In this document: positions 2,253-64,000 of the stretch, piece by piece
Position numbering within the stretch: the stretch's first letter is position 1
Layout of the letters: each line of letters begins with the position of its first letter
IMG/VR virus record: IMGVR_UViG_3300028584_001241
DNA: 64,000 nucleotides
Source: a virus
Reading direction: 5' to 3' (one strand)
Made by a program: the position numbers and the translations under genes
The notes under the pieces: generated by a model
What the model saw: only the letters and a program-made list of their open reading frames with translations
Database searches by the model: none
What the model was told of the DNA's origin: nothing

Positions 2253-2975
2253 ATGGATAGATTTAGTGTTAGAGAGGATAAATTTCCATACAGTAGCAGC
2301 GTAGGTGGCTTATACCTTAACCATGCGATTGATGATAAACAATCTGTTCAAATTGCAAGAAAGCTCTCTGAAAAATGGTTGCCTGATGGGAATTGTCTGC
2401 TTGAATTAGAAATGGATATACCCCAAGCCAAACAAATTAGAGAATTAGGTAAAAAATATGTTTCATTGGTTCAAGGTAAATATGAGAAGAATAAAAAGAT
2501 TAGAAAAGTTTATTTGAATAAACTCATTGAACTGGGTTGTATTGATATGAGTGAGATATCCAAAATGTATCACGCTGACAGTATTACAGAAGACGAATAT
2601 TTAGAAAAAACAGTAATGAGAGTGCCCTTTGACTTCAACGGCATTAAAAAGATATATACAAACCTGACACTGAATAAAATGTTTTATCATATTCAACTAG
2701 ATAGGATTATAGAGTTTGTGTGTGTTGAATTATTTGTTTATAACGCTAAAATGACATTTCTCAGTAGTGACTTTGAAGGCTTAGAGTTTTGCAAGCTGTT
2801 AAAAAGTGTAGAAGTTGCGTCACCAAAAGAAACTCAAGATGAGATGTTGCATGCATGCATTAACGAACGATTACATAAGAGAATTACTAAAAAAATTGGT
2901 ATGGATGTTGATATGAATGATTTTCAAAAGAACTTCGACAGCTATAAAGCCATTTATGACATGTGGAAGGTATAA
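2253..2975 (+). CDS. hypothetical protein, paralog of 2963..3709
   Basis: Shares LPDGxCLLEL, VPFDxNG, DMWxV with the next gene; SD AAGGAG. Confidence 0.8.
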   Translation: MDRFSVREDKFPYSSSVGGLYLNHAIDDKQSVQIARKLSEKWLPDGNCLLELEMDIPQAKQIRELGKKYVSLVQGKYEKNKKIRKVYLNKLIELGCIDMSEISKMYHADSITEDEYLEKTVMRVPFDFNGIKKIYTNLTLNKMFYHIQLDRIIEFVCVELFVYNAKMTFLSSDFEGLEFCKLLKSVEVASPKETQDEMLHACINERLHKRITKKIGMDVDMNDFQKNFDSYKAIYDMWKV

Positions 2976-3709
2976 TTATGACTAAGTTTATAGTAAAAGA
3001 ATACAGTTCACCTTATCTATCAACATCTGTTAAAAATTTGATGCTAACGATAAACAACAACAATTCAGACAGAATTGCTTATGTTCATACAAAAAAATAT
3101 TTACCTGATGGAAGTTGTCTATTAGAACTCGATAGTGAAGATTTCAAAAGAGAGAGTGCAGAAAAATGGGCACCCAATAATTTTTTACAAATTAAAGACT
3201 ATGCTAAAAAATGCAGAGAGATCCGTGAAATCTATGTCAATAAATTGGTAGAATTAGGTTGTTTTAATCTTGAAGATGTTAGAATGCTTAATACATCAAA
3301 ATTTAGGTTAAAAGAAACAGAAGATACCGCTTACTTAACACGAGTACAAATACAGGTTCCTTTTGACATTAATGGTAAAAGAACAATCTATAAGAATTTA
3401 ACAGAATCGCGTTTCTATTATCATCTTGAGACAGACAGATTGATAGAGTTTATGTACAGTGAACTGTATGTTTACAATTCAAAGATGTTTTTTTTAACAA
3501 GTGATATAGAAGGATTAGAATTGTTAAACCCATTAAAACAAATTGAAGTGGCTTCAACAGAAGAAAATAGGCATAAATTTATAGAAAACTGTATTTATAC
3601 AAGGTTGTACAAAAAAATGACTAAAAAAATAGGTATAGAGGTGAGTCTGGAAGACTTTCAGAATAACTTCGACAGATACAAAATGGTATACGACATGTGG
3701 AGAGTTTAA
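2963..3709 (+). CDS. hypothetical protein, paralog of 2253..2975
   Basis: Colinear similarity to the upstream gene; likely start ATG 2978. Confidence 0.8.
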   Translation: MEGIIMTKFIVKEYSSPYLSTSVKNLMLTINNNNSDRIAYVHTKKYLPDGSCLLELDSEDFKRESAEKWAPNNFLQIKDYAKKCREIREIYVNKLVELGCFNLEDVRMLNTSKFRLKETEDTAYLTRVQIQVPFDINGKRTIYKNLTESRFYYHLETDRLIEFMYSELYVYNSKMFFLTSDIEGLELLNPLKQIEVASTEENRHKFIENCIYTRLYKKMTKKIGIEVSLEDFQNNFDRYKMVYDMWRV

Positions 3710-3712
3710 ATT

Positions 3713-4744
3713 ATGTATTTTATTGAATTTGAAAAATTAAGCAAGCTAACACCCAGCGATTGGAAAAACTCACCTGTTGGGGTTAATGCATTAAGTATAT
3801 TTAAAAGCTTGTATGAAACAAGTAAAAATCGTGACTTTCTTATTCCAAAAGCCTCTCTTCAAATAACAGAAGATTTCTTATTTGTGACATCAGCTAATAA
3901 GAATATGGTTACATTTAATCCTACCGCTGAAGACGAAAAGAAAGAATATATGAGTCATTCTTTCATTGTTAATAAAAACCACAGTAAATTTCCAACGTCT
4001 AGAATTTATGGATTAAAAGAACAACTAGAATCAAGTCCTAATATTTTGTTAGCTAAGGACGTATTCAAGTCTACTTACCGTTCTGATTTAATTCCTGAAT
4101 ACAATTATAATATAACCCTCGATTATATGACCAAGTATAAACACAATAAAGCTAACGAACATAGAAAAATATTTGATGAACAAATAAAACCGATTGCGGA
4201 TCACTGTATTAAAGAAATCATTGATGTCTTTTCTCAATATGGTGAGGTGGAATTATCACCACCCAGAAAACAAAACAGTCGAACATTAAACTATTTTATT
4301 AAAAATTCTATAAATTTCATTGTTGAAATCGCACAGAAAGAAGAATTCAAAATTGGTTCCAATGGAGAGTTGATACCTAATTTAAAACTTGAAGTTCGTT
4401 TACAACAGTCTGACGTTTATGAAAAGAAGGTAAAAGAGAAAGATGGTACCATTGTTGTTAAAAAATTTAACGAGCGGTATATAAAACAATCAGGTTATAA
4501 ACATTTCACAATTGAAATCAGAAACTTTGAATTTTTAAAGAAGCCTGCTTACTATGCTATATCAATGACACCACATGGCTATCTTCGTTTGAAAAAATCT
4601 TACTCAAAAGAATTCTTCAAAAAGATTATTTTCCATTACCAGTTCAAAAAGTATTTCGAAAAATACGAAATTGAGCTGGAATTAGACGAATTAGAAGACA
4701 ATCCACAAGCGTTTTTTGATTTAGTAGCAATGTTGAATTTTTAA
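3713..4744 (+). CDS. hypothetical protein with C-terminal M-x-x-hydrophobic tail
   Basis: 343-aa ORF ending LVAMLNF. Confidence 0.75.
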   Translation: MYFIEFEKLSKLTPSDWKNSPVGVNALSIFKSLYETSKNRDFLIPKASLQITEDFLFVTSANKNMVTFNPTAEDEKKEYMSHSFIVNKNHSKFPTSRIYGLKEQLESSPNILLAKDVFKSTYRSDLIPEYNYNITLDYMTKYKHNKANEHRKIFDEQIKPIADHCIKEIIDVFSQYGEVELSPPRKQNSRTLNYFIKNSINFIVEIAQKEEFKIGSNGELIPNLKLEVRLQQSDVYEKKVKEKDGTIVVKKFNERYIKQSGYKHFTIEIRNFEFLKKPAYYAISMTPHGYLRLKKSYSKEFFKKIIFHYQFKKYFEKYEIELELDELEDNPQAFFDLVAMLNF

Positions 4745-4745
4745 C

Positions 4746-4941
4746 TTGATTTTTTGTTTAAATTGCTTTAAGATAGAAGAATATTCACACATTAATGGAG
4801 AAATCTCATGTAACTAATTATATCACGCTAATAAATGACGAATGCATAACTAAACATATAGCATAACTATAAATCCATTTTGATGGAAGTTATCTTATGT
4901 CCTTAAAAGTCGTTTATTGCTTAATAATTAGGAGATTTCAC
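4746..4941 (+). promoter_or_regulatory. promoter plus structured leader with ATG-TAA start-stop element
   Basis: TTGATT(4746)-17-TAAGAT(4769); GGAG-7nt-ATGTAA at 4808; nested inverted repeats 4800-4939 cover the SD of the next gene. Confidence 0.65.
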
Positions 4942-5700
4942 ATGGTCACATATAGTAATGCAGTAAGACACCTCAGTAATTCCAAATGCAAAGAATTTAA
5001 CAAAAAATTTACAAATAAGATAGCCCTTGAAATATGGGGTGACGATTCATGTTGTGATTCATTTTGTTGTTGTTATGATGATGACGACTATTTAAGTGAT
5101 GAGCAATATGAATGGTCGTATGAATATATGGAAAAAAGAAGTCATTTGTTTTACGAGAACATTTCAAGTTTGAAAACTGTATTCACAACAGATTTCTTGG
5201 ATGACGTAAAAGCAAGACAATCTGCAGAAATAGACGCATTAACAGTTTATCTTAAAGTTAAAGCAAAAGATTTGATAGAAGGTTATAATTCAGAATTTTT
5301 TGCAGAGTTTTTTGATGAAGGTAATAAATATAATTTAGAATTATATGCAATGGTCAATTATAAAGATTTCGATTTAACAAAAATTAGAAGTATAGATATA
5401 GCGGTTATGAATCCTTTCAATCGTGAGGAAGGTGATTCATATGGTATGGGGCGTAATTCAATGTACAAATTTAATGTATATTATGAGAAACATACGAACA
5501 TCATGTTCTCTACGATTTCATTTTTTTATAGAAATATGCAAAGAAGAGAAATTCCAGAGTGGTGTGAGACAATGGAAGAAACGATTATGTATATGTATCT
5601 AGATGCACCGCAATATAAAAAGTTAAAAGAAATTTTTGATATAAAAGAAGTTATAAAAGATATAAGCATGTTTGATGTGTTAAAAATGTATATGGTTTAA
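4942..5700 (+). CDS. hypothetical protein with Cys/Asp-rich patch
   Basis: AGGAG at 4930 favours ATG 4942 over 4897; DDSCCDSFCCCYDDDD; ends KMYMV. Confidence 0.75.
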   Translation: MVTYSNAVRHLSNSKCKEFNKKFTNKIALEIWGDDSCCDSFCCCYDDDDYLSDEQYEWSYEYMEKRSHLFYENISSLKTVFTTDFLDDVKARQSAEIDALTVYLKVKAKDLIEGYNSEFFAEFFDEGNKYNLELYAMVNYKDFDLTKIRSIDIAVMNPFNREEGDSYGMGRNSMYKFNVYYEKHTNIMFSTISFFYRNMQRREIPEWCETMEETIMYMYLDAPQYKKLKEIFDIKEVIKDISMFDVLKMYMV

Positions 5701-13207: not shown

Positions 13208-13870
13208 ATGATTTTTAAAACTCTTGCTGAAAATGAAGAACATTCCAATCTACTTGAAATAGCTCAGCATATTACAATAGATCAAACAAATATATTCCCA
13301 GAGAAGTTTTTGTTCTATGTGTTTTCAAAATATGATTTACACAGTCTTTCAATGGAGTTTAGAAACAAAAAAACAATTTCAATACGTTCTCTGGTTGACC
13401 ATAAGTTAACCGAAATTGCAATACTTGAATACATGAATAATGGTGATTCAATTATTTTGACAGATGAAATATTATTTGAACCGGGCGAAATAAAAAATAT
13501 AAGTGATCCATTAATAAGAGAGAATGGTTTTGCTAACTACAACAATTATAACAATGTTAAAAAATTCTTAACAGTTCCTTTCTTTGGTGATTTAGACTAT
13601 CGAGTGAGTGCTCAAGCTGCTTACCCTTATGGTGGAGACGCATCCTTACGTTTTGTTAGACATCATAAAATAAATAATTGGTCATCCACAATAAGTATAC
13701 TATTAGATTACATAGATAAAACACAAACAAAGTTAACAGACCAAAATCTAAACTCATTTAAAGTCATATTGTCTGATTTGTTACTTATTGATCTATCTGA
13801 TGAAAATCATGAATCGTTCATCAGAAATAGTAGTAATTATAATAAATTAATTGGAATGAAACAAATTTAA
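13208..13870 (+). CDS. hypothetical protein with C-terminal tail motif
   Basis: Ends LIGMKQI. Confidence 0.7.
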   Translation: MIFKTLAENEEHSNLLEIAQHITIDQTNIFPEKFLFYVFSKYDLHSLSMEFRNKKTISIRSLVDHKLTEIAILEYMNNGDSIILTDEILFEPGEIKNISDPLIRENGFANYNNYNNVKKFLTVPFFGDLDYRVSAQAAYPYGGDASLRFVRHHKINNWSSTISILLDYIDKTQTKLTDQNLNSFKVILSDLLLIDLSDENHESFIRNSSNYNKLIGMKQI

Positions 13871-28392: not shown

Positions 28393-28641
28393 ACTAATTA
28401 CTCCTGATTTCTAATTTAGTGAGGCTATTCTATCATAACAGTTATACTAAGACAATACTTTAATGCTTATTTTTTAAAAATATTTTATAAATAGGAAAAA
28501 GAAGAGTGTATGTCTAGCACCTGATTTTTTTCTTCTATATATAGCATGGAACTATATTAAAATGAATTGAAAAAAAAGATTGACATATGTGATTTTTCCA
28601 TCATATAATAGCGGAAAGAATTGAAAACAAAAGGAGATTCT

Positions 28642-39639: not shown

Positions 39640-40215
39640 ATGACACTTGAAGAAAAAATTTTAGACATTCTTAACAAAGATAAAAAAGACGTGAGAATAC
39701 CTGAACCATCAAACAAAACGGACTCAGAAATTTGGCTTTATACTCATAAAGATAAAGATAACTCCTTCCAGATTTTTTTTGCCAACATAACTAATGGAAA
39801 TATGGCTCATATCAGAAGAGATGAGGATTCAGAAAATTATGATAAAGTTTTTGAAGCGTCCGATAAGGAAATATACAATAAAATTATTGAAGTCTATGAA
39901 GAAAATATGGCTTTTTTTAATCGTTATAAGTCTATTATAAAAAATGATAGAAACGTGCGTATTTATCTAGAAGATCCTTATTTTTACTACAACAAGCGTT
40001 CTAAAAAATTGTATGCTATTCCGACAATAAAAGTCCAAACTATTGCGGCGTCGTTCTCATTTTATCTCTATCCAAGTCAACTAAAAAAAATAAATATTGC
40101 TGTTGATAAAATTTACGAAGACTTTTATCAGCATCTTTTTCAATTCTTTTTAGAGAAACCATTGAATAAGTATTCAGAAGAAGAATTGACATTGTTCCAC
40201 ATGATTAAAATTTAA
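39640..40215 (+). CDS. hypothetical protein with C-terminal tail motif
   Basis: Ends SEEELTLFHMIKI. Confidence 0.7.
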   Translation: MTLEEKILDILNKDKKDVRIPEPSNKTDSEIWLYTHKDKDNSFQIFFANITNGNMAHIRRDEDSENYDKVFEASDKEIYNKIIEVYEENMAFFNRYKSIIKNDRNVRIYLEDPYFYYNKRSKKLYAIPTIKVQTIAASFSFYLYPSQLKKINIAVDKIYEDFYQHLFQFFLEKPLNKYSEEELTLFHMIKI

Positions 40216-41016: not shown

Positions 41017-41045
41017 ATTTAACGACATTAAAGAGGAGTCAAAAA

Positions 41046-41819
41046 ATGAATGATCAAAATTACAAAACAGCTTTCAATAAATTATTTAATGGATATACAA
41101 CCGAAAATGAATTTTGGAGAAGACCTGATGCAAACTGGTGCGAAATCACAGGCATACTGAATATGAGTGGAAGAAAGTTCAAAGATAGTTATATTAAAGC
41201 TTATTTTTATCATAACCCAGAGACGTACATTTACACTCATTCTGCGATCACGTTTGAAAAAATACCAAAAAGAATGCTAAAAGAAATTTTTAATAATCAA
41301 AATTACAATTATGACTTAGTTGACACAATAATTAATGAACTATATACAATAGGTGAATCATTTAGTTTTTATAAAGATATGTCACCTATTCAAAATATTA
41401 ATATAGAAAACACACTAAATCTTGACCAATTTGGACAATCAACACCAAAAAATGTCACAAAAATAATATTAGCTTCTTTTTTAAAAGATAAAAGAGCAGG
41501 TTCACAACCTATAAAAAGAATGGCTAGACAATCCATAAAATTCAAATTGGTTGATGATAATATATGTCCAATAATGGAATTAATCATTCCTTATTCGAAC
41601 ACTGATTACTTCCATTCAATGATTCATTTACACCCATCAATGAAAGATAAACAAATAAACAAAATAGAAGAATTGAAAGCTGATTTTACAGTACAACTAG
41701 AAGAACAACTTGAAATTGTGTTAAATAAAAAACTTAAAATTTCTAAAAATGATATAAAGAATATGACTTTGCAAGAAAAGCGAAATTATATACCAGTTCT
41801 AGAAATGCTGACTGTTTAA
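41046..41819 (+). CDS. paralog array member 2 of 7
   Basis: Same motifs; ends VLEMLTV. Confidence 0.8.
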   Translation: MNDQNYKTAFNKLFNGYTTENEFWRRPDANWCEITGILNMSGRKFKDSYIKAYFYHNPETYIYTHSAITFEKIPKRMLKEIFNNQNYNYDLVDTIINELYTIGESFSFYKDMSPIQNINIENTLNLDQFGQSTPKNVTKIILASFLKDKRAGSQPIKRMARQSIKFKLVDDNICPIMELIIPYSNTDYFHSMIHLHPSMKDKQINKIEELKADFTVQLEEQLEIVLNKKLKISKNDIKNMTLQEKRNYIPVLEMLTV

Positions 41820-41846
41820 TGATAGCTAATTGTAACGGAAATTAAA

Positions 41847-42623
41847 ATGAATGATAAAGAACCAAATTATGTAGAAGTATTTAATATTTTCTTTGGAAAA
41901 AAACCTTTTTCTACTGAAGGTCATATTGATAAAACAGAAACAAAAACCACTTACGGTTACGATATAATGAGCATCTTTGTATCTTGTAGATTTCATAAAG
42001 TCAATGTTAATATTATGTCAAAGCCTTATAGTTATACTTGTAATATTTCTTTTAAAAACTTATCTAAACAACCTGTTAAAGAATTGTTTGACGCTAAAAA
42101 CTATAATTACGACCTAATTGATGAAACTATCAATGAACTCTTTAAAATAGGGCAATCATATAATTTTTATAAAGGCATGACACCTATTAAAAATAATAGA
42201 TTAGAAGACTCTTTTATGAGAGGCGGATATCCTAGCGGAAACAGCTCTAAAAACTTGACAAAATTAACACTGTCAGGATTTTTAACAGATAAATATACAG
42301 ATGATAATCCTTTGAAAAAAATATCGAAACAACATGTAAATTTTTATTGGTCTGAAAATAATGAAATCTATCCAATCATTACATTGTTTTTTCCTTATTC
42401 TTCAACTGCAGATTTTATTTGTTTTATTAACTTGCATCCATCACAGCGAGAGTTACAAATAAAAAATTTAATTCAAATAAAGAAAGATTTTACTGCTGAA
42501 TTAGAAGAACAGCTTAATACTGTTTTAAAAAGAAAACTTAAATTTAAAAAAGAAGATTTATTAACATTGACAACACAAGAAAAATTAAATTATATTCCGG
42601 TTGTAGAGATGGCAAGAATATAG
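41847..42623 (+). CDS. paralog array member 3 of 7
   Basis: Same motifs; ends VVEMARI at a TAG stop. Confidence 0.8.
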   Translation: MNDKEPNYVEVFNIFFGKKPFSTEGHIDKTETKTTYGYDIMSIFVSCRFHKVNVNIMSKPYSYTCNISFKNLSKQPVKELFDAKNYNYDLIDETINELFKIGQSYNFYKGMTPIKNNRLEDSFMRGGYPSGNSSKNLTKLTLSGFLTDKYTDDNPLKKISKQHVNFYWSENNEIYPIITLFFPYSSTADFICFINLHPSQRELQIKNLIQIKKDFTAELEEQLNTVLKRKLKFKKEDLLTLTTQEKLNYIPVVEMARI

Positions 42624-42658
42624 AATAGTCAAAAATATAATATTAAAATACATAAAAG

Positions 42659-43465
42659 GTGAAATATATGAGTAGTAAAGCTGATAAATATTTAATGGTT
42701 TTTAATAACTTTTTAAAAGATAAAGTAATTGATACTAGGCTTGTGCAGAAACACAATGAATCACTTTCTCAAATTATTGGTATCTACAATGATCCAAACC
42801 AAACGTTATCTAACTACTATACAACTTTAACATTTTCTCCAAATGCTTCAAAAGTCAATAATATAGAATATACTGACATATGTGATATTAGGGTCACCAA
42901 TATGCCAGATAGATATTTCGATGAAATGATGGATTCTCAAAATTATAACCACCTATTGGTTGCTGATATTATTAAAGAAGTTTTTAATATTGGCAAACGG
43001 TTTGAATTCTATCAAGAGATATCACCAATCAAGAACATAAAAATCAGTGAAGCTTTTACTAATAACGGTGATGAACGTTATGTAAGTCTAAAAAATATAG
43101 CAAAGTTAAAACTATCAACATTTTTAAAAGAAAAAGGATCAAGCATTAAAACATTAAACAAATTCATCTATTACAATATTCAATTTCTTATAAATAACGA
43201 TAATGAAATTCATCCAATAATGTATTTATTTGTTCCATATTGTTCATCTTATAATTTCATGACAACTATAAATCTACATCATTCTCAAAAAGAAAATCAA
43301 TTAAAAAGGATCGAAGAATTAAAAAATGAAGTCACTATGAAATTTGAACAACACTTAGATGGCTTATTAAATAGAAGTCTTAAGATTAAAAAAGATGAAA
43401 TCGCTAACATGTCCTTAAACGATAAGCTAAGTTATATTCCTGTACTTGAAATGAACAAAATTTAG
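42659..43465 (+). CDS. paralog array member 4 of 7
   Basis: Same motifs; ends VLEMNKI at a TAG stop. Confidence 0.8.
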   Translation: MKYMSSKADKYLMVFNNFLKDKVIDTRLVQKHNESLSQIIGIYNDPNQTLSNYYTTLTFSPNASKVNNIEYTDICDIRVTNMPDRYFDEMMDSQNYNHLLVADIIKEVFNIGKRFEFYQEISPIKNIKISEAFTNNGDERYVSLKNIAKLKLSTFLKEKGSSIKTLNKFIYYNIQFLINNDNEIHPIMYLFVPYCSSYNFMTTINLHHSQKENQLKRIEELKNEVTMKFEQHLDGLLNRSLKIKKDEIANMSLNDKLSYIPVLEMNKI

Positions 43466-43519
43466 TTGATGAGAATTGAAAAAAATGATATAATAACACT
43501 CTTCAAAGAGGTCATTTAA

Positions 43520-44344
43520 ATGGAAAAAAATAACGAACAATCAATGCTTATTAACATTTTACAAGCAACATTTAAAGAAAAGTATTTTGACGAAATAACT
43601 GTATCTGAGGGCGATAGTTATTCTGGAACTGTTGTCAAATTAAATTTGAAAGATAGTGATGGTTTCATAAGTTGTAAATTTAGAGGGCGAGGGCATATTA
43701 ATTTTTCCATGAATTATGAATCTGAATGTGTCATTGGTTTTAAAAACATAGAAATACCTATGATCGCCACATTACTTAATGAGAATAACTACAATTATGA
43801 AATCGTTAAGCAATCAATCAATGAATTTTTTAAGCTGGGTGAGAAATGTAAATTATTTAAGTCATTGAAAAAAGTTAAAAGCTTAAAAATAGAAGATAAC
43901 TTATCAATGGGACATAGGTGGGATAACGGTGATTATGAGACTCTATTTTCATATACTCAAAATATTTCAAATATACAGTTTTCAAATTTCTACAAAACTG
44001 AGAATCATAAAAAAGCGATTAGACCTAAAAAATTGAAGGGTAAAAATATGACGTTGTATTATAAATTTACACTTAAAAATGGCAAACTACAGCCTTTTGC
44101 TCATATTGATTATCCAGTAGCTCCTAACGTTAGTATTCCATTTGTTTACAATATTCATGCTGATTTCATTGAAGAATCTAATGATAAATTTAAGAAATAC
44201 TACAATGAATTGGAAGAAAGACTTAATAAAAGAGTTAATCAAATTTTGAAAAAAGATTTAAATTTGACTGATAAAACTCTATCAGAACTGTCAATAGATG
44301 ATAAATTAAACTATTTGATAATTGCTGAAATGTCAGAAATATAA
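43520..44344 (+). CDS. paralog array member 5 of 7
   Basis: NYNYE..INEFF..G; ends IAEMSEI. Confidence 0.8.
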   Translation: MEKNNEQSMLINILQATFKEKYFDEITVSEGDSYSGTVVKLNLKDSDGFISCKFRGRGHINFSMNYESECVIGFKNIEIPMIATLLNENNYNYEIVKQSINEFFKLGEKCKLFKSLKKVKSLKIEDNLSMGHRWDNGDYETLFSYTQNISNIQFSNFYKTENHKKAIRPKKLKGKNMTLYYKFTLKNGKLQPFAHIDYPVAPNVSIPFVYNIHADFIEESNDKFKKYYNELEERLNKRVNQILKKDLNLTDKTLSELSIDDKLNYLIIAEMSEI

Positions 44345-44362
44345 TAGCATCATCTTAAACCT

Positions 44363-45220
44363 ATGGAGACAATAATGAATCAAGATCAAATCACTTGTTT
44401 AGAAGCCTACTTGAAAATATTCAATGGAACGCTTTTTGATCAACCATCCTTCTATGATGCAAGTGGACAGACTAGTATTGGTTCTATTATCGCCATAAAT
44501 AAAATCCAAAATGCTGACATATCAATACAAGATGAAAACATTAAACAATCAATCCAGATAGGTTTTGGAAAAAACAATAATTATATGTATAAAGATCATG
44601 ACTATGATTTCAATTGTTTATTCCAATTTACCAATATTAATAAAAAAATGGTCGCTTCTTTTTTCCAGAATATAAAATACAATTATGATGTTATTCATGA
44701 TGCAATCCATGCTTTTTATAAGATAGGTCATGATTATGGACTATTTGACTCAATGGACACAATAGCTGATTTAAGACTGCAAAATTTCTTTAAAGCTCCT
44801 TATAAAGCCAATGGAAAATCAAATAAGTTAACTTCTACTGGAATAAAAGTATCCGAGATAAACTTTACTGACTTCTTTAAAACAAAGAAGAACGCTCATA
44901 AGGGCAAGCTGAAAAGTAGAAGGCTTTCTGTCTATTATAAATTTATAGTGAAAGATGGTGAAATACATCCATTGGTTTTGGTATCAATTCCAGTATCTAT
45001 TAATCATACACAAAGCATTACATTAGACATTCATCCGTCTGCAAAAGAATTTAATGAAAAGAAGCTAATAGAAGGTTTGGAAAAACTTGATGAAACATTA
45101 AAAGAGCGAATTGATATGATCCTTCGTAAAGAATTAAAATTAAAAAATAAATTTTTAGAGACACTGACCTTTGAAGATAAATTGAATTATTTAAAAGTCG
45201 CTGAGATGGCAATGATTTAA
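44363..45220 (+). CDS. paralog array member 6 of 7
   Basis: GEIHP, DIHPS; ends VAEMAMI. Confidence 0.8.
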   Translation: METIMNQDQITCLEAYLKIFNGTLFDQPSFYDASGQTSIGSIIAINKIQNADISIQDENIKQSIQIGFGKNNNYMYKDHDYDFNCLFQFTNINKKMVASFFQNIKYNYDVIHDAIHAFYKIGHDYGLFDSMDTIADLRLQNFFKAPYKANGKSNKLTSTGIKVSEINFTDFFKTKKNAHKGKLKSRRLSVYYKFIVKDGEIHPLVLVSIPVSINHTQSITLDIHPSAKEFNEKKLIEGLEKLDETLKERIDMILRKELKLKNKFLETLTFEDKLNYLKVAEMAMI

Positions 45221-45236
45221 GCTAAGAGGTGGCCTA

Positions 45237-46031
45237 ATGTTAAATAGAGATATATTGTTATCAGCGTACAAAAAAATGTTTGATAACACACCATTTGAAA
45301 AGTATCTACATCCTAAAGACACGTATTATGAATACCGTATTGTAGGCATTGATGAAAGTGTTCAAAGAAATACCAGTTCGGTGGCATGTGTATTTACAAA
45401 AGCAAACCCAGATAAAATGATACCGAATATAAAGTATGAATACATATGCACAATGGCTTTTAATTATGTAACAAATGCAGTCATTGATGAATTCTTTCGA
45501 TCAAAAAATTATGACTATGAACTTGTTAATAGAGCGTTAAAAGAAGTGACTGATTTAGGTATTGAATATGGTTTTATTAAAGAGTTTACAATAGGGGACT
45601 TTTCAGTAGAAGAACAATTTAAAAGCACACTAATTAACAAAACAAGTTCGTTTAGACCAGCCGGTGTGATTACTTTTTCAAATGCTTTAGTTGAATTTGA
45701 TAATGATTTTGGGAAAATGATTTATAAAAGAACACTGAATGTCGAGGTTGTTTTCATCGTCAAGAATAATGAAATACATCCAGTATTGATGATAGCGTTT
45801 CCATTCACTGCTAAAAAGAAATATTACATGTATCTCGATATACATAAAGATCACAAACATAATCATGAGTATGAGTTGTTAAATATACAACAAAGTTGTA
45901 TTAAAAAGATGAACGAACACGTTGATATTTTATTAATGGAAAACTTTAAGATGAATAATTCAGATCTGAATAAAATGAATTTAGAGGCCAAGCTCGATTA
46001 TCTTAAAGTTCTTGAGATGGGAATGATTTAA
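45237..46031 (+). CDS. paralog array member 7 of 7
   Basis: NYDYE, NEIHP; ends VLEMGMI. Confidence 0.8.
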   Translation: MLNRDILLSAYKKMFDNTPFEKYLHPKDTYYEYRIVGIDESVQRNTSSVACVFTKANPDKMIPNIKYEYICTMAFNYVTNAVIDEFFRSKNYDYELVNRALKEVTDLGIEYGFIKEFTIGDFSVEEQFKSTLINKTSSFRPAGVITFSNALVEFDNDFGKMIYKRTLNVEVVFIVKNNEIHPVLMIAFPFTAKKKYYMYLDIHKDHKHNHEYELLNIQQSCIKKMNEHVDILLMENFKMNNSDLNKMNLEAKLDYLKVLEMGMI

Positions 46032-46046: not shown

Positions 46047-46862
46047 TTATTGAAATAATAACATCGAAATAAGCGATATTTCATTTTCACTCAAATGAAA
46101 GATATCGTCTTTTGATTTATATTCAAGATTAAACTTTAATTTGTAGTAATCAAAAGAATAATAAAATCTAAGTAAAATGAGTTCATTACTAGACAGTAAT
46201 TCATTATCAAACATTATCTTATGTTCACTTAAATTAAATGAAGCTTTCTTTTTTGTAATCTTGGATATTAAGTCAATATGATCTTTATAGGTGGCGACAA
46301 TGAATGTCGTATTCTTACGATGAATTGAAAAATAAGAATTTTCTTCATCCAATTCACCAAATTCATTATAAGTAATAAACTTAGGTGTCGTATGACATGA
46401 TGCATTATAATAATTTAAGTCAGACTGATTAGGATCAACATCAAGGTAAGTCAATGATTTGATTGTGCCTAATTCATCATAGATACTTCTAACAGGTTTG
46501 TTTACATTATCTTTGTACATACCATAAATACCTTTAGGTATGAATTTTACACTCATTAACTGAAAGTAAGGGTCAAACCCAATAACCAGAGGTTTTACTG
46601 AGCTATCAATAGTTTTTAAAAGTGTTGTCAAATCGTTGTCAAAGATATTGAATCTGAATAGTTTTGTTTCATTGTCAATCAACAAGTAAATATTTAATCC
46701 AACAACTTTTGTTTCTTCAAAGTCATCATCAATAAGAATAACGACTTTTTCAATATCTTCATAAACGTAGGGGAATGGAGTATTGTCAAAAGTAATACCA
46801 GAAACACTTAATATCTCTTTGCCTGCTGCAGTGAATGACATGTCTACATGTTTTAGATCCAT
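46047..46862 (-). CDS. hypothetical protein
   Basis: AGGAG SD; ends SENEISLISMLLFQ. Confidence 0.75.
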   Translation of the reverse strand: MDLKHVDMSFTAAGKEILSVSGITFDNTPFPYVYEDIEKVVILIDDDFEETKVVGLNIYLLIDNETKLFRFNIFDNDLTTLLKTIDSSVKPLVIGFDPYFQLMSVKFIPKGIYGMYKDNVNKPVRSIYDELGTIKSLTYLDVDPNQSDLNYYNASCHTTPKFITYNEFGELDEENSYFSIHRKNTTFIVATYKDHIDLISKITKKKASFNLSEHKIMFDNELLSSNELILLRFYYSFDYYKLKFNLEYKSKDDIFHLSENEISLISMLLFQ

Positions 46863-50303: not shown

Positions 50304-52655
50304 TTAAGTCGGTGAGCTTTTGTTTTTTCTTGGTTTTAATACAACTGAAAGATCAGGTCTTGTTGCTAGGAACTTTTCTCTCAATGTGATCAAATCAAGT
50401 TCTCTTTCTTCTTTGGACATTTTTTTAACACCATCCAAAAATTCAATAGCAAATGTTTTATCATCAGCTTTAATATTCAACCCACTCACCAAAGCATTCA
50501 GATCAGTTTTAACACCTTTTAAAGCATCCACGTTAATCTGGCTTACTGAATCACTCATCGCCTTCCAAAATTGATAATAAGGCAGTTTAACCATAAACAT
50601 ACCTGTACCTTCAACCACAAAGCCTTCCATGTGTCTTTTTGTCTTGAATGCACTCTCATTACTTAATGCATTGCAAAATTTCTCAAAATCTTCAAACGAT
50701 CTAAAGCTAACAAATTTCTTTTTAGCCTCAATCTTTTCAAAATTAGCAGCAAAGGCTTCCAAGTTTTCATATGTCAATTGTGAGAATACAACATCACGCT
50801 TCACAACAGATAATAAAACAATTGAAGATTCATCAGCTTTAATAATCTTTGAATCATTAACTGGATCAATGACTTCAAAAATGTAGTTGACATTGTGTTT
50901 ATTCGCAAACACTTTCATAAACTCTAGTTCACTGGTTTTTAGTTTACTGAATACCATTTTTCTGAAGGCTTCTGTTTCTGCTGTATCAATACCATTCTTT
51001 GATGTAAAGACCAAAGCGGTATGTTCAACATCATAACCAATCATTCCCAAACGCCCATCTTCTTGTTCAAAAACATTTAATGAACCCGTTGTTTTCGATT
51101 TAAGAGATTCTAATGTATTAGATGCAACTCCTTTTTCATTAAGCTCATAAAATTTATCAAAACCACGAGCAACAATATCTCCTGTTTTATTATTAACAAC
51201 AAGGCCACGAATCTTTACAGACGATTCTTCAAGTGGCTGACCCACAACATCATCTTTAAAATTAAAAGTAGACAAGTGAGGTTTTGAGATAGAAACAGTT
51301 TCTACCAACAACTTATTACTTCTAAGATCCTGAAGCAATGCAACACCTGTTTTATGACCATCTACTTTACGGTTTAAGAAATTAGCCACTGTACTTTCTG
51401 GTTCAGTAACGCCAAACATACCAGACTCTTTTTCAATCCTAAGTACTTCTTCTTTATTAAATACTTTATTCGTAATATAGATACCATTAAAACCTTCACG
51501 GCTGACTCTCAATACTGGCAAGCTACCACCATATTCTACATCAGCTTCCAAGGCAAAGCTTTTAGCATAACTATTAAAGTCTAATTTATGTTGGTTTCTA
51601 TGACCATGAACCTGATGCCATTCGTTATCTTTATTCTGTTCATTAAACTTACCATCGACATCATAGCTATATGGGCCATAGCCACGCATGTATTCATCAG
51701 ATGTTAAAAGACGTGGAAACTCAGGAACTGCAGTCAATCCAGCATGTGTAGTCATAATCTTTTTGCCATTGTATTGAACAAAACTAAACAAGTGCATTTT
51801 TCTATACAACTCTTTCATATCATCTTTTGTAAACCCAGCTTTTTCAAGTTGTGGCAAAGTATTCTTCATAAACTCATCAGGTGGTGTGTAGATATCATGG
51901 CTATAGTTATACATATGTTTCTCATGATTACCCGCAAGGATCAAGACATTTGGATATTCCATATATTTTCTTACAAAGTGAAGGCACTTATCATTTTCAA
52001 TACCACGATCAAGATAATCACCAACAAAAATGTAGAATTCATCTTTTTTGAAACCACCTTCTAGTTCAAAGTATCTTTTCAATGGATAGAAAGATCCTTG
52101 AAGATCACCAATATAATGTATCTTCTTGTAAGCACTCAAATCAACTATCAAATCTTCCGGTGAAGCTTTTACAAACTTAATAGCCTCTTCTGGAGTAATG
52201 ATTTTCGTTCTATCATCAAATGAAGCATTGGTGAATAGTACATAGTTTCTATCAATAGCCTCTTTTGGCAATCTTTTATAAGGTTCACGTTGTTCATTAC
52301 GAGCGTAATAGAATTCTACTGGTTGCAATGGAAATTGAACCACACGATAATCATAATCAAACTTAGTCAAAAGTTCCATGTAGGAATCAATCGCTTTTTG
52401 ATCTTGGTTAAGGTTATCAATAAAGAGAACCCCACCCATTTGAAGTCTCAATTCAAGAGCTTCCATAAATTTACCGAAGACTAAATCCTCTCTGTTGTTA
52501 GAGAGTACAAGACGGCCATCCATATCAGTAGCCGAACCAGCATAAATATGTCTGATAGCATCAAGTGATAAGCTGTGGGCATCTAAACCATGCTCTCTAA
52601 TAAAAGTAGACTTACCTGTTCCCGGCATGGCTGATAAGAAGTAAACAATTCTCAT
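50304..52655 (-). CDS. polynucleotide kinase - metallophosphoesterase - RNA ligase-like fusion
   Basis: AMPGTGKST P-loop; GDLQG, GDYLDRG, GNHE, HGH; ARGFDKF, EQEDG, EGFVV ligase motifs. Confidence 0.88.
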   Translation of the reverse strand: MRIVYFLSAMPGTGKSTFIREHGLDAHSLSLDAIRHIYAGSATDMDGRLVLSNNREDLVFGKFMEALELRLQMGGVLFIDNLNQDQKAIDSYMELLTKFDYDYRVVQFPLQPVEFYYARNEQREPYKRLPKEAIDRNYVLFTNASFDDRTKIITPEEAIKFVKASPEDLIVDLSAYKKIHYIGDLQGSFYPLKRYFELEGGFKKDEFYIFVGDYLDRGIENDKCLHFVRKYMEYPNVLILAGNHEKHMYNYSHDIYTPPDEFMKNTLPQLEKAGFTKDDMKELYRKMHLFSFVQYNGKKIMTTHAGLTAVPEFPRLLTSDEYMRGYGPYSYDVDGKFNEQNKDNEWHQVHGHRNQHKLDFNSYAKSFALEADVEYGGSLPVLRVSREGFNGIYITNKVFNKEEVLRIEKESGMFGVTEPESTVANFLNRKVDGHKTGVALLQDLRSNKLLVETVSISKPHLSTFNFKDDVVGQPLEESSVKIRGLVVNNKTGDIVARGFDKFYELNEKGVASNTLESLKSKTTGSLNVFEQEDGRLGMIGYDVEHTALVFTSKNGIDTAETEAFRKMVFSKLKTSELEFMKVFANKHNVNYIFEVIDPVNDSKIIKADESSIVLLSVVKRDVVFSQLTYENLEAFAANFEKIEAKKKFVSFRSFEDFEKFCNALSNESAFKTKRHMEGFVVEGTGMFMVKLPYYQFWKAMSDSVSQINVDALKGVKTDLNALVSGLNIKADDKTFAIEFLDGVKKMSKEERELDLITLREKFLATRPDLSVVLKPRKNKSSPT

Positions 52656-57206: not shown

Positions 57207-57803
57207 ATGATTGAATACTCTTCACAATCCCTTTCCATTGGTCATTCTGCTTCTTTACTTGGTGTTTCTGTTTCAACTCTTCGTCGTTGGAATAAACTTG
57301 GTAAATTATCTTCTTTTCGCACTTTTGGTAATCATCGTCGCTTTCATCTCAATGATATACTCAACATCATCAACCCATCGCTTAATCAACTTCATGTGGC
57401 TTACGCTCGTGTTTCTTCTCACGACCAAAAGAAAGACCTTGAAACTCAATCTAAACGTCTAGAACTTATTATTGATCAATATGAGCATAAAATGCTCATA
57501 TCTGATCTTGGCAGTGGTTTAAATTATAACAAAAATGGATTAAAAAAGCTCATTAATCTTATCATTAATTCAAAAATACATACGCTATACTTAACTCATA
57601 AAGATAGATTATTACGATTTGGAAGTGAATTAATATTTTCTTTATGCAAAAAATTTGGCACAAAAGTTATTATTGTCGATGCAGTTCAATCCATTAGCTT
57701 TGAGCAAGAGCTTGCTCAAGATGTGATTGAGCTAATGACGGTCTTTTCGGCTAAACTTTATGGCAAACGATCTCATAAGAATAAAAAATCAATAACTTCT
57801 TGA
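57207..57803 (+). CDS. tnpA: IS607 TnpA serine recombinase
   Basis: MerR-like HTH (LGVSVSTLRRW), YARVSSHDQKKDL, DLGSGLN, HKDRLLRFG. Confidence 0.95.
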   Translation: MIEYSSQSLSIGHSASLLGVSVSTLRRWNKLGKLSSFRTFGNHRRFHLNDILNIINPSLNQLHVAYARVSSHDQKKDLETQSKRLELIIDQYEHKMLISDLGSGLNYNKNGLKKLINLIINSKIHTLYLTHKDRLLRFGSELIFSLCKKFGTKVIIVDAVQSISFEQELAQDVIELMTVFSAKLYGKRSHKNKKSITS

Positions 57804-57828
57804 CTTTTAATAGTTTTTTAGTTACTAT
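57800..57828 (+). promoter_or_regulatory. internal promoter for tnpB
   Basis: TTGACT-17-TACTAT overlapping the tnpA stop, upstream of ATG 57857. Confidence 0.6.
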
Positions 57829-57856
57829 TATGGCATTATTGAGTATTTATTTATCC

Positions 57857-59785
57857 ATGAAAAAGAAACCCAACATCAAAGAGTTATTTGGCCCTACATT
57901 AGATGATGATGTGGCAATGAATAACACCATCACTGTTCAGGCAAAGTTCGAACTTTGTCCTGAACAGGATGTGATCTTGAATAAAATCATGGAACATCTT
58001 ACTCATGCTAAATTTATGTATTTCAACTATCTTGTTTATTCAACTAAAATGAATAAATTCATGAAAGACCATGCTCTTTCTGTTACTAATACTGTCGAAG
58101 TTGAAGATAAAGAAACAGGTTTAAAGTCATTAAATAGTATTACAGCCCTTGAAACGTTTAAAGTTGTTTTTTGTCGTATCTATGGTCTATCATCACGTCA
58201 ATTTAATTCTATTGATTTTGTTATTAAAGGTCTTATTAAGGCTAATAAGACTTTAATGCAAGATAGATTAATCAACTTTAACGATCAACTTATTAAAAAA
58301 ATAGCCAAACAACAAAAAATCATGGGCGAGCTTCATCTTTTGTCCATAAGTGATGCTTTTAAAACTAAGAAAGAGAGCGTTCTTTCGTCTTACAAGAAAA
58401 AGAAAACGCTTTTAATCAAAATAAACGAAGATATTGAAAGAAAAAAATCGGCTATTGTTAGGTTAGATCATAAAATTAAAACCAACAAAATCTCTGTTTG
58501 CTTTGGTGATCGCAAAATATTGAATAGGCTTTCTTCTTTATTCAATGATAGCAATTATGATCATGGTAAATATAAACATCTTAGCAACGACGCTCGAAAA
58601 AGCTATCATGTTGCATACAGAAAGCTCTGGAATGATTCACGTTTTAATCAATTTTTCTTATTGGGTTCAAAAGATGAAAACAATGGAAATGCTTCTTGTG
58701 TGTTTTCAAAACAAAGTGAAAGCCTTTATTCTGTTAAGATTTCAATACCACAAGGTGTTAAAGATGAGCTATCTTTAACTCAAAAGTATTTAGTCATTAA
58801 CAACATTAACTTTAAACATAACGAAAAAGAAATCTTAAATAGTCTTGCTTTAAATGAGCAAAGAAAACAAAAAGAAAGTGAGTACACTCAAAAACGAAAA
58901 GACAAAGATCCATCGTTGTTCGATGATAAAAATAAGATGATAAGTAAAGCAAATTACTTAGAAGATGAAGGTATTGCTATTTCATTTAGATTTGTAAAAG
59001 ATACTTTTGCCGATCCTAAAAGAGTTTCTAACTCTTGGAGAATTCTAACGTCAATGGATGAAACCAAACATCAGAAAGCTATTGTATCAAAAGCAACAGG
59101 CGTTATTGCTATTGATACCAATGTTGACCATTTTGCTGTTTCTGAATTAAATAGTCAAAGAGAATTGAAGAAAGCTTTCAACGTTTATTTTGGTTTCACT
59201 GACAGTGAACAAAATTCCAATAAAACGCTTCGTAAAGAAGCGATATTGAAATCAGCCAAAGAGATTATTAAATATGCAATAGAAACTCAAAAACCAATTG
59301 TAATCGAACGTTTAGATTTCAAAGCTAAACGAGCGGTATTAAAAGAAGAAAATACTTTGTTTGGTGATACTGCCAAAAGAAGAAACCGTATACTTTCATC
59401 ATTTGCATACTCATTGATGATTGAGACGTTAAAAACGCTAGCGTATCGTAACGGCATAGCCGTATACGAAGTCAATCCAGCGTTTACGTCTCAAATAGGT
59501 TGGTTAAAGTATGCAAAAAAATATGGTATATCAAGACACATGGCAGCAGCGTATGTGATCGGAAGAAGAACGTATGCCATAGAAGAGTTGTTTGACCGAA
59601 ATGAGCAAGTTATTGTAAAGAGCAAAATAGGAACAATCCCGATACTAGTAGATAGAGGCGATTGTAAAACTTATTTTGAGTATTGCAGTAAAAACTTGCG
59701 AAATTTCCTAAAAAGACAGGTTCATGAAAACCGAGGAAAGCAAGATAGTACTCAGGTAAGTAGTGGATCTGTAATAACTATTTAG
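57857..59785 (+). CDS. tnpB: large TnpB-related RuvC protein
   Basis: IAIDTN (RuvC-I), IVIERLDF (RuvC-II), VNPAFTSQIG, SRHMAAAYVIGRR; likely start ATG 57857. Confidence 0.85.
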   Translation: MKKKPNIKELFGPTLDDDVAMNNTITVQAKFELCPEQDVILNKIMEHLTHAKFMYFNYLVYSTKMNKFMKDHALSVTNTVEVEDKETGLKSLNSITALETFKVVFCRIYGLSSRQFNSIDFVIKGLIKANKTLMQDRLINFNDQLIKKIAKQQKIMGELHLLSISDAFKTKKESVLSSYKKKKTLLIKINEDIERKKSAIVRLDHKIKTNKISVCFGDRKILNRLSSLFNDSNYDHGKYKHLSNDARKSYHVAYRKLWNDSRFNQFFLLGSKDENNGNASCVFSKQSESLYSVKISIPQGVKDELSLTQKYLVINNINFKHNEKEILNSLALNEQRKQKESEYTQKRKDKDPSLFDDKNKMISKANYLEDEGIAISFRFVKDTFADPKRVSNSWRILTSMDETKHQKAIVSKATGVIAIDTNVDHFAVSELNSQRELKKAFNVYFGFTDSEQNSNKTLRKEAILKSAKEIIKYAIETQKPIVIERLDFKAKRAVLKEENTLFGDTAKRRNRILSSFAYSLMIETLKTLAYRNGIAVYEVNPAFTSQIGWLKYAKKYGISRHMAAAYVIGRRTYAIEELFDRNEQVIVKSKIGTIPILVDRGDCKTYFEYCSKNLRNFLKRQVHENRGKQDSTQVSSGSVITI

Positions 59786-61914: not shown

Positions 61915-62715
61915 TCATATCAGCAACATTGCCAGTAAGGTTTGTTCTTCTGTTGTATAACGCTCCCAGAAAAGATGAAAGTTTTCAATGGTGACATCGC
62001 TTACATCAAATACATCTTTATGATCTAATAACGATATCCGTTTACCACTTTTTGTACTCAGTATTTTAACATCAGTCAACTCTTGTCCAATAAAGCCAAT
62101 GGCATCCGCAAGAATGCAATCTGGATTATGACTGTAATCATCATAACAAATCTGAATTTGTTTCTTATGCTTTTCATAAAGAGACGCAATCACAAACCGA
62201 TTTTTTAAATATTTAAAACCAACATCTGTTCGGATTAAAGTGGGATCTCCATAATTTTCCCTTACCATGAAATTTTCATAAAAAGGTGTTTCAATCCCTT
62301 CTGGATAAAGTGTGTGATTTCTTTTCTCATCATTATGGAAAGATTCAAAAGATTTGTCATATCCTTTTGTTTCTTTGATGTATGAAAAATTATCGTCCGT
62401 GTAATGAACAAAATACTTTTCTTTAATATGACGTGAGTCCAATTTGATAATTAAGATAAATTCATCAACCCTTTTAAAATAAAAAAGCTTGAAATGCTCA
62501 ATTTGTTCAAATCCAGAAGCTTTTAAAAATCTAGCCAAGTCATGTGATGTAAAATTATTAAAGAATACAGTAGTTGCTGGTTTTTTTATATACGTGTTGA
62601 ACGAATCAATGTCCCATGCGACAGAATCTATAATCTCTAATTTCATACTAATTGTATTTAAATTCATCATAAAAGTGGGAACCTCATTAAAGTAATCTAT
62701 CCTATCAAAAAACAT
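61915..62715 (-). CDS. paralog trio member
   Basis: LYPE..E.PF, FKY..NRFVIASL, ENFHLFWE; ends LLAMLLI. Confidence 0.8.
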   Translation of the reverse strand: MFFDRIDYFNEVPTFMMNLNTISMKLEIIDSVAWDIDSFNTYIKKPATTVFFNNFTSHDLARFLKASGFEQIEHFKLFYFKRVDEFILIIKLDSRHIKEKYFVHYTDDNFSYIKETKGYDKSFESFHNDEKRNHTLYPEGIETPFYENFMVRENYGDPTLIRTDVGFKYLKNRFVIASLYEKHKKQIQICYDDYSHNPDCILADAIGFIGQELTDVKILSTKSGKRISLLDHKDVFDVSDVTIENFHLFWERYTTEEQTLLAMLLI

Positions 62716-62736
62716 TGTAGCTGTCTATGTTTTCAT

Positions 62737-63516
62737 TTAAACCATCAACATTTCAATCAACGTTAGTTGTTCATGGGTATAGTGTTCCCAGAAAAGATGA
62801 TAGTTGTCTAGTGTAATGCTATGAGGATTAAATTCATCTATATCAAGCATTGACATCTTTTTTTGATTGCGTGGATTGACAATCTCTAAACTTATTAACG
62901 TTTCGTCACGAAATTCAATAAAATCTGCATAAATATAATTACAATTTTTCTTGTATGTATCATAAGCTATCTGTATATGTTTATCATTTCTATCAAAAAG
63001 AGAAGCGATCATAAATTTATCATTACCATATTTAAACGCTAAATCTGCACGAAGAAGCTTGGGTTGAGCGTAAGCAGACCTAACCAAATAATCAACATGA
63101 AAAGGAATATCTAATGATTCTGGATATAAGCTATAGCAAAATACATCACTATCACTATGAAAATCTTTAAATGATCCATCATTAAAAGTCATATGAGTAA
63201 ATGATTTTACAGCCCACAAATTTTTTTCAGAATTCATAAGAGTATATCTTTCACGAATCACAAAGTTTGATAGGTTTAACTCTATATTAATAATAAAAAT
63301 AAAGGAACCCATAATTTTTAAATAATGGAAATTTTCTGCTGAGTCCATTTTCGTGAAACCAGCATTAATAAATAAATTGTCTAACATGAAATGATCAAAA
63401 TTTATAAAAGCTATACAAACTTCTGATTGATAAATGCGTGTGTGAAATTCATCAACATTAAAATCCTCTGAGTTTAAGGTGACTAGTTTTATCTCTATGT
63501 CTTTTAAATTAATCAT
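62737..63516 (-). CDS. paralog trio member
   Basis: DNYHLFWE; ends LIEMLMV. Confidence 0.8.
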   Translation of the reverse strand: MINLKDIEIKLVTLNSEDFNVDEFHTRIYQSEVCIAFINFDHFMLDNLFINAGFTKMDSAENFHYLKIMGSFIFIINIELNLSNFVIRERYTLMNSEKNLWAVKSFTHMTFNDGSFKDFHSDSDVFCYSLYPESLDIPFHVDYLVRSAYAQPKLLRADLAFKYGNDKFMIASLFDRNDKHIQIAYDTYKKNCNYIYADFIEFRDETLISLEIVNPRNQKKMSMLDIDEFNPHSITLDNYHLFWEHYTHEQLTLIEMLMV

Positions 63517-63527
63517 TACAGTTCCCT

Positions 63528-64000
63528 TTATATCCCTGACATTTCAACAAGTATTCTTTGTTCTGGTGTAAACTCATTCCAAAATAAATGAAAGTTATCT
63601 AATGTAATACTAGGAACATCAATAATCTCAGAATCTGATGTAATATCTAGCTGTATGTTTCTTTTTAGATTTAGTAATCGAGCGACCTTTATGTTACCTT
63701 CAATAAACTCAATAAAATCAGAAAATAAATAATCCTCTCTCTCTTCTGGATGTAGGTAATTTATATGGACAAAGCTTCCTTTTCGATGAAAAATTTTGGC
63801 TATCATCACTTTATTTTCTTCGTATTGAAATGACAGCCCTATATTGTTAATTTTAATTGTAGGAGTCTTTCTAATAAAGAAGCGTTCATTAAATGGAGTT
63901 TCAAGACTAATGTTATAGAATGAAGTCCATTGATTATTAACAAAATATAAAGACTCCAATAACTTATCTTCTGATTTTTCACAATTCTCAATGTATTCAA
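63528..64000 (-). CDS. paralog trio member, 5' end beyond window
   Basis: Frame open to window edge; DNFHLFWN; ends LVEMSGI. Confidence 0.75.
   Translation of the reverse strand, partial: EYIENCEKSEDKLLESLYFVNNQWTSFYNISLETPFNERFFIRKTPTIKINNIGLSFQYEENKVMIAKIFHRKGSFVHINYLHPEEREDYLFSDFIEFIEGNIKVARLLNLKRNIQLDITSDSEIIDVPSITLDNFHLFWNEFTPEQRILVEMSGI

Follow-up and report, generated by a model that had tools for sequence, protein, structure and literature searches.

Of the 80 open reading frames (ORFs) in a 64,000-nucleotide stretch of DNA filed as a virus (IMG/VR record IMGVR_UViG_3300028584_001241; the whole stretch is called the window here), 17 end in the same short C-terminal tail, with methionine at the fourth position from the end (−4) and isoleucine, valine or phenylalanine at the last (−1). 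The tail sits strictly at the stop codon, is better conserved than the proteins it terminates, and recurs on bodies that have no detectable sequence relation to one another. Analysis of the window together with a 181-kb relative confirms this observation, extends it to 29 sequence-independent clusters and puts the share of genes that carry the tail at about 22% for an element that spans at least 181 kb. The tail may be a module by which a single shared partner recognises or docks onto these proteins, a partner that would most likely belong to an export or transfer route; to this reading we give a little less than an even chance.

The window is a section of a 1.85-Mb metagenome contig and has a guanine–cytosine (GC) content of 31%. 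A syntenic stretch (L001) lies within a 1.86-Mb JGI contig, and the same DNA is recorded in IMG/VR as a 181,270-bp 'provirus' (IMGVR_UViG_3300031088_000737, referred to as G001). Proteins that carry the tail are called tagged below.

A conserved C-terminal tail on sequence-unrelated proteins

Our census of the tail covered the window and G001, the latter represented by 198 non-overlapping ORFs of at least 70 amino acids (aa); the 80 window ORFs comprise 17 tagged ORFs, two near variants and 61 others. A preliminary description of the window, which located each gene by one edge (the start on the plus strand, the stop end on the minus strand), had listed 17 C-termini of the form M(−4)..[I/V/F](−1), and all of them are present in translated ORFs, as are the two near variants, ..LIEILST (35969–36664) and ..ISMLLFQ (46047–46862). 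Methionine occupies −4 in 18 of the 80 window ORFs, compared with a methionine frequency of 2.4% (P = 6e-13); outside the tagged set and the near variants, it does so in only one of 61 ORFs (28018–28392, ending ..RMGMFDE). In G001, where methionine likewise makes up 2.4% of residues overall, it stands at −4 in 45 of the 198 ORFs (binomial P = 3e-30), as against one to six occurrences at each other position from −1 to −10. The enrichment survives the collapse of paralogs, with methionine at −4 in 33 of 167 G001 clusters formed by BLAST on the bodies (P = 1.3e-20), and in 8 of about 64 in the window after BLAST groups had been collapsed (P = 1.5e-4); the preliminary description had named a loss of the enrichment at this step as a refutation, and no such loss occurred.

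When ORFs were picked solely by hydrophobic residues at −7, −6 and −1 (n = 45), position −4 was methionine in 37 and isoleucine in three, although leucine and isoleucine are far more frequent than methionine overall; methionine is thus, as judged from the sequences, specifically required at this position. Rare paralogs carry isoleucine there (LDILLI, VDIVLF and, in the window, IEILST), and the L001 ortholog of the window variant (35969–36664), at an identity of only 26%, retains IIEMLGI. Third codon positions within the tail and the DNA 3′ of the stop codon are not conserved, and selection therefore acts at the protein level. A nucleotide-level role of the conserved ATG was rejected on the same grounds. 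In a genome of 31% GC, ends rich in isoleucine, lysine and asparagine are common, which would suit an explanation by chance, by the composition of AT-rich C-termini or by ORF calling. That explanation is refuted by the excess of methionine at −4 over the other C-terminal positions of G001, by the methionine specificity and by the collapse tests; in addition, orthologs from independent metagenomes retain the pattern, stop positions are independent of start choice, and we assign an artefact practically no probability.

By BLASTP, the tagged ORFs of the window fall into nine groups (Table 1). Comparison of these groups with hhalign after removal of the last 22 residues detected no relation (all P > 0.04), and with the tails left on, alignment was confined to the tails. 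The window and G001 together hold 29 tagged BLAST clusters, for which 406 hhalign body comparisons were chance-like, with two at P < 0.01 against four expected, the best of them spanning 19 columns (P = 2.9e-4). The proposal that the carriers represent different families is supported at the level of sequence, in that no relation between their bodies was detectable among the nine window groups or among the 29 clusters. Tagged proteins are 124–492 aa long (median 258), and most are soluble and lack a signal peptide, with few exceptions that have one. Both soluble and multi-pass membrane carriers had been described, and both classes are present: in the proteins of group E, up to four predicted transmembrane (TM) segments (three or four in a hydropathy scan) precede a soluble domain of ~90 aa, which leads into the tail.

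The tagged proteins are also set apart by their lack of recognisable domains. None of 51 tagged proteins reached the Pfam cut-off, compared with 23 of 60 untagged ORFs scanned, a set biased to large ORFs (Fisher P = 9e-8), which agrees with the earlier statement that recognisable enzymes are without the tail. Searches of the tagged proteins against Pfam, NCBIfam and PHROGs returned nothing except phrog_21276 in a single protein of 492 aa (G001 165353–166831; L093:5353–6828), whose residues 105–256 match this family with E = 3e-58. In the jumbo phages RAS14 and CM1 this domain forms a protein of its own (169 aa), to which the tagged copy is 56% identical; the identity to the stand-alone protein of XacN1 is 54%. 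The RAS14 homolog examined ends in ..YFELKR and carries no tag, and the tagged protein runs 235 residues beyond the domain to end in ..KLINMLTI.

Comparison of orthologs shows that the tail is held more firmly than the body. Tagged window proteins share 26–64% identity with their orthologs in the relative (85% in one pair), compared with 66–96% for untagged neighbours, yet in 9 of 11 ortholog pairs conservation is higher over the last 16 residues than over the body, and the distance from tail to stop is retained exactly. A profile of 26 tails (35 positions) placed every real copy exactly at a stop codon, and found no internal copy in six-frame translations. Against 1.84 billion representative sequences, a 35-position tail profile gave ten matches, nine of them family members matched at the C-terminus; the tenth is internal (38 bits), in an 819-aa protein that ends without a tag. 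A 42-residue tail profile run against 5.8 billion proteins retrieved only orthologs of the same lineage, the motif being too short to reach other lineages. In a set of 5.8 billion proteins, group F forms no more than 23 clusters, every one of them metagenomic and ending in EMxx[I/V]. Patterns of this family found no relatives among GTDB genome contigs, a profile of group H found none in 133 genomes of one order, and megablast of window positions 28000–52000 found none in phage and plasmid collections. Two weak IMG/VR matches (L083, L084) were set aside as ordinary small phage modules without tags.

Tail anatomy and predicted structures

Residue counts were taken from one representative per cluster (n = 29), methionine at −4 being the selection criterion. 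The consistent core of the tail comprises hydrophobic residues at −9 (24 of 29), −7 (leucine, valine or isoleucine in 27) and −6 (hydrophobic or alanine in 28), a usually charged residue at −5 (glutamate or aspartate in 13, lysine or arginine in 7), the methionine, and isoleucine, valine or phenylalanine at −1, isoleucine being found there in 21; position −3 is hydrophobic in 19. Acidic residues stand at −11 and at −15 in 15 clusters each and at −12 in 10, and threonine stands at −13 in 8. The upstream signature [ST]x[ED][ED] of the preliminary description is thus only partly general. An acidic run within −18 to −8 occurs in 11 of the 29 tagged clusters, compared with 10 of 153 untagged ORFs. 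As a separate observation, the element whose tagged proteins share the invariant methionine also encodes MsrA, a peptide methionine sulfoxide reductase with a PMSR domain (32345–32923, plus strand); its occurrence beside methionine-dependent tags may be a coincidence.

AlphaFold2 was used to model two of the families. The model of the F family (30 sequences; predicted local distance difference test (pLDDT) 84.8, predicted template modelling score (pTM) 0.83) has an alpha/beta body and a 34-residue helix, followed by three short tail helices (residues 235–239, 243–247 and 250–256). The model of the H family (24 sequences; pLDDT 83.2, pTM 0.81) has a small alpha/beta N-terminal part and a long beta meander, and ends in two helices (239–245 and 248–258). 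The two models differ in architecture and secondary-structure plan. Their nearest PDB neighbours differ as well, and lie within noise (the FP domain of PI31/Fbxo7 at Z 6.5; TCP10 and barrel fragments at Z 6.0). Fold searches gave no match above noise in the PDB with Foldseek (F model), in VIA wide (both models) or in BFVD (F model), and the ESM Atlas yielded no usable match.

Tagged genes and gene content of the element

The tagged genes and near variants of the window are collected in Table 1. Next to the group E genes, an 82-aa ORF (35699–35947, minus strand) resembles the N-terminus of the TM protein at 36667–37422 (E = 1.7e-7), and by this similarity is probably a truncated duplicate without a tail.

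Table 1 Tagged ORFs and near variants of the window, with their BLASTP groups (three of the nine groups are singletons without a letter).
Group	Position	Strand	C-terminus	Remarks
A	2253–2975	+	..KAIYDMWKV	G001 ortholog ends YDMWRF
A	2963–3709	+	..KMVYDMWRV	Paralog of the 2253 ORF, 42% identity
Singleton	3713–4744	+	..FDLVAMLNF	Same tail in G001 ortholog
Singleton	4897–5700	+	..FDVLKMYMV	
Singleton	13208–13870	+	..NKLIGMKQI	G001 ortholog ends LIEMINI
E	35969–36664	−	..VLIEILST	4-TM protein; degenerate tail, Ile at −4 after register shift
E	36667–37422	−	..LSDEELTVIEMLGI (EMLGI)	TM protein
G	39640–40215	+	..YSEEELTLFHMIKI (HMIKI)	
F	40228–41016	+	EMARI	First of seven tandem paralogs (40228–46031), all ending ..NY[LI]xVxEMxx[IV]
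F	41046–41819	+	EMLTV	
F	41847–42623	+	EMARI	
F	42659–43465	+	EMNKI	
F	43520–44344	+	EMSEI	
F	44363–45220	+	EMAMI	
F	45237–46031	+	EMGMI	
I	46047–46862	−	..LISMLLF + Q	Extra Gln after the tail
H	61915–62715	−	..TLLAMLLI	
H	62737–63516	−	..TLIEMLMV	Group H AlphaFold model
H	63528–63998	−	..ILVEMSGI	5′ end beyond window

In G001, tagged genes occur up to the very end of the record, and because of this the borders of the record are probably not the borders of the element. The record is classed as a provirus (CheckV 58%), and its coordinates do not map in a simple way onto the 1.859-Mb JGI contig with which it shares an identical 20.8 kb.

The element encodes a varied set of enzymes, including ClpA, a Pnkp-RNA ligase, RtcB, AsnB, a CoaD-CoaE fusion, SufE, MsrA and Sir2, together with class II and atypical class I aminoacyl-tRNA synthetases, an MGMT domain, a dCMP deaminase, a Ser/Thr kinase, a HipA-like kinase, ART-PolyVal and a KAP NTPase. 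A 2309-aa protein with a lipase-like domain is present as well, as are OmpA-type lipoproteins, read from their lipobox and NRR[VI]EIQI C-termini only, and pilin-like genes, one of them PilS-like. The ClpA (28621–30921, plus strand) is canonical and aligns over its full length to E. coli ClpA (E = 3e-173), with the N-domain present and the ClpP-docking IGF loop retained at residues 622–624; it is found in both genomes, and jumbo phages (Sinorhizobium Phosso, Salmonella Munch and others) carry ClpA-like genes with ~41% identity to it. Neither ClpS nor ClpP was seen beside clpA. LplT-Aas has its best match, at 52% identity, in a proteobacterial genome, and IglC and IcmL were not found in five genomes of the order to which that match belongs.

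The segment 6516–9515 (minus strand) encodes four paralogous proteins, two with prepilin-like N-termini, and the PilS-like protein (type IVb pilin) lies at 31065–31913 (plus strand); a pilus assembly ATPase was not found in the 181-kb relative. The gene at 50304–52655 (minus strand) encodes a three-domain protein of the tRNA-repair type that combines a P-loop kinase, a metallophosphatase and a T4-type RNA ligase 1. The relative has a counterpart at 84% identity and, in addition, an RtcB ligase. At 57207–59785 (plus strand), a MerR-type serine recombinase of 198 aa overlaps a 661-aa ORF without a Pfam match, an arrangement that looks like an IS607-like unit. In the relative, an isoleucyl-tRNA synthetase (L001 20–2341; G001 113758–116283) stands beside the tagged array. 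It is atypical, its best GTDB match being 42% (Achromobacter, Kerstersia), and on this sequence comparison it looks like an auxiliary, horizontally acquired synthetase.

Known C-terminal signals and competing explanations

In the explanation that we favour, the tail would be a lineage-specific C-terminal recognition module of about 15–30 residues. It may adopt a short helix-turn-helix, the last helix reading hydrophobic(−9)-x-hydrophobic(−7)-hydrophobic(−6)-E/D/K(−5)-Met(−4)-x-x-Ile/Val/Phe(−1) and closing with a free carboxyl end. As such, it would mark a large, fast-evolving set of otherwise unrelated orphans, about 22% of the genes of an accessory element of at least 180 kb, for one partner, and a single receptor may read it. 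Our committed guess is that the receptor would be part of an export or cell-to-cell transfer route, the tail then acting as an effector-type translocation signal, with the machine encoded outside the DNA read.

The closest parallels come from three kinds of secretion signal. Dot/Icm (type IVB) signals lie in the last 20–35 residues of hundreds of proteins, with an acidic stretch at about −10 to −17 and a hydrophobic residue at −3/−4; two kinds are described, the RalF type, with its hydrophobic residue close to the very end, and the E-block, which DotM reads (PMC7251119). TM effectors are reported to take the Dot/Icm route as well (PMC11602083). Like the Dot/Icm signals of Legionella and Coxiella, the tail is C-terminal and occurs on many unrelated, fast-evolving and often orphan proteins, TM proteins included, and here the acidic residues peak at −11, −12 and −15, with methionine at −4 and the motif always terminal. 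However, Dot/Icm signals are degenerate and presumably flexible, whereas the tail is a sharply conserved, predicted helix with an invariant methionine and a fixed distance to the stop; the acidic run, although enriched, is present in only 11 of 29 tagged clusters, and Dot/Icm or other type IV components were not found in the available DNA.

In type I substrates (AprA, and TliA with EGVLIS), acidic and then hydrophobic residues stand at the extreme C-terminus, and the motif requires a free carboxyl end, one added residue impairing secretion (PMC2642768). Endings such as E-M-L-G-I and D-M-W-K-V, with glutamate or aspartate at −5 in 13 of 29 clusters, then methionine, hydrophobic character at −3 in 19 of 29, and isoleucine, valine or phenylalanine at −1, recall the protease/lipase group of these substrates. 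The tagged proteins differ from them in the invariant methionine and in the absence of repeats-in-toxin (RTX) repeats (in 60 tagged proteins, a search for GGxGxD repeats gave a single GGxGx[DN], in one protein). An ATP-binding cassette (ABC) transporter was not found in the 181 kb, and a type I system handles few substrates, compared with at least 40 here. Xanthomonadales type IV effectors (XVIPCD-type) are described as carrying, behind N-terminal bodies that are unrelated to one another, a conserved C-terminal consensus that the coupling protein reads (PMC8262851, PMC11253643). The tagged proteins resemble these effectors in sharing a C-terminal consensus across unrelated bodies. The XVIPCD-type domain is ~120 residues long, and the effectors that carry it adjoin immunity genes. 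It is much longer than the tail and of other sequence, and VirD4 was not found in the 181-kb relative. None of the Dot/Icm, type I or Xanthomonadales type IV signal families can claim the tail; the machines were not found in the DNA read, RTX repeats are absent, and the known signals are degenerate or much longer.

Several of our results weigh against a translocation signal. In both models the tail is confidently predicted (pLDDT 78–92) and contiguous with the body, with no low-confidence linker; a tail so ordered, as modelled, would be unlike known disordered translocation signals and speaks against a peptide that is floppy and freely portable. Within group H, one widely kept subfamily ends in IEMLIE, and a hydrophobic last residue is therefore not obligatory. 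A one-residue extension is tolerated in one gene, at 46047–46862, which is otherwise 85% identical to its relative: its stop lies one codon later than that of L001 (..TTT CAA TAA at 46047–46052, compared with ..TTC TAA, L001 12782–12784) and adds the glutamine after the tag. Finally, neither a type IV coupling protein (PF02534), a T2SSE/VirB11-type ATPase (PF00437), an ABC transporter (ABC_tran) nor Terminase_6N was found in the 181 kb, bacterial microcompartment (BMC) shell proteins (PF00936) and encapsulin (PF04454) were not found in G001, and none of these machines was among the window ORFs scanned. Probably, then, whatever reads the tag is encoded outside these 181 kb. The portable address tag of the preliminary description thus stands as regards the many sequence-unrelated bodies, and is weakened by the predicted ordered helices without a linker and by the subfamily that ends in glutamate.

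The same ordered helices would be expected if all tagged proteins belonged to one old, very fast-evolving, lineage-specific superfamily, in which the tail is a conserved structural last helix that caps a beta-sheet body and carries no portable signal. A loose plan of a beta meander followed by C-terminal helices is common to the F model, the H model and the TM family's soluble domain, the tagged proteins are of similar size around their median of 258 aa, all of them are orphans in tandem arrays, and bodies that are only 26–64% identical between close genomes leave room for homology to have been erased. Against this, 406 profile comparisons brought out no similarity between bodies, an alpha/beta body with a 34-residue helix differs from a mostly beta meander, and the nearest PDB neighbours of the two models are different and weak. 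Lengths range over 124–492 aa, some members have four TM helices, and one is built on a domain that occurs alone and tail-less in phages; an invariant methionine, not interchangeable with leucine or isoleucine, followed by a fixed three residues to the stop, would also be unusual for a purely structural helix. We consider a single superfamily somewhat unlikely, though a serious alternative.

Two further explanations assign the tail to machinery within the cell or the particle. Degrons of ClpA and ClpX, such as those of ssrA and MuA, are short C-terminal tags with hydrophobic ends, and a tail read as a degron or adaptor-binding signal by the element's own ClpA, acting with host ClpP, could provide timed turnover of accessory proteins. 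This is mechanistically possible, as a full-length ClpA with its N-domain and IGF loop is kept in both genomes; but neither ClpS nor ClpP was seen next to its gene, degrons are exposed and occur on few proteins whereas the tail is predicted to be ordered, and purifying selection for a degron on about one-fifth of the genes of an element is hard to explain. We regard turnover by ClpA as distinctly improbable. Encapsulin cargo-loading and microcompartment encapsulation peptides are short terminal amphipathic helices common to unrelated proteins, and the tail could similarly be a packaging or targeting signal that loads proteins into a protein shell, a virion or a compartment like the phage nucleus. 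The relative is listed in IMG/VR as a provirus, and the element shares ClpA, the phrog_21276 domain, Pnkp-Rnl and RtcB with jumbo phages. However, searches of the 181 kb found neither Terminase_6N nor a BMC shell or encapsulin, and of ten large unknown ORFs none matched an NCBIfam model or a structural PHROG, one of them matching phrog_1106 (unknown function, E = 3.5e-15); given this lack of terminase, shell and structural PHROGs, the 'provirus' label of G001 is itself doubtful. The tail differs in sequence from the known cargo peptides, whose known sets of cargo are small, at least 40 cargo species would be unprecedented, and the parent contig of 1.85 Mb is chromosome-sized. A packaging signal, too, seems quite unlikely.

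Returning to a recognition module read by an export or transfer route, its most far-reaching form would be that the hydrophobic-hydrophobic-[E/D]-Met-x-x-Ile-COOH helix is a new, sharply defined cargo code for an export, transfer or injection machine of an uncultured bacterium or of its giant phage-like element, handling at least 40 rapidly diversifying, effector-like proteins. We hold this to be a possibility, on balance an unlikely one; if true, it would make the tail the first signal for secretion or transfer to be recognisable directly in a sequence, and with near-perfect specificity.

Cells and mobile elements rely on terminal tags, shared by unrelated proteins, to direct cargo to secretion systems, proteases, capsids and shells, and most such codes are fuzzy, which makes effector repertoires hard to predict. 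The tag described here is short, nearly invariant and present on about one-fifth of the genes of the element, and it thereby defines a functional set among proteins that could otherwise not be annotated and offers a direct handle for finding their partner. Should this partner be a machine for transfer or export, the tag would list its entire cargo; should the tail instead be all that is left of one exploded family, it illustrates the speed at which families borne on such elements can diverge and still keep a single interface.

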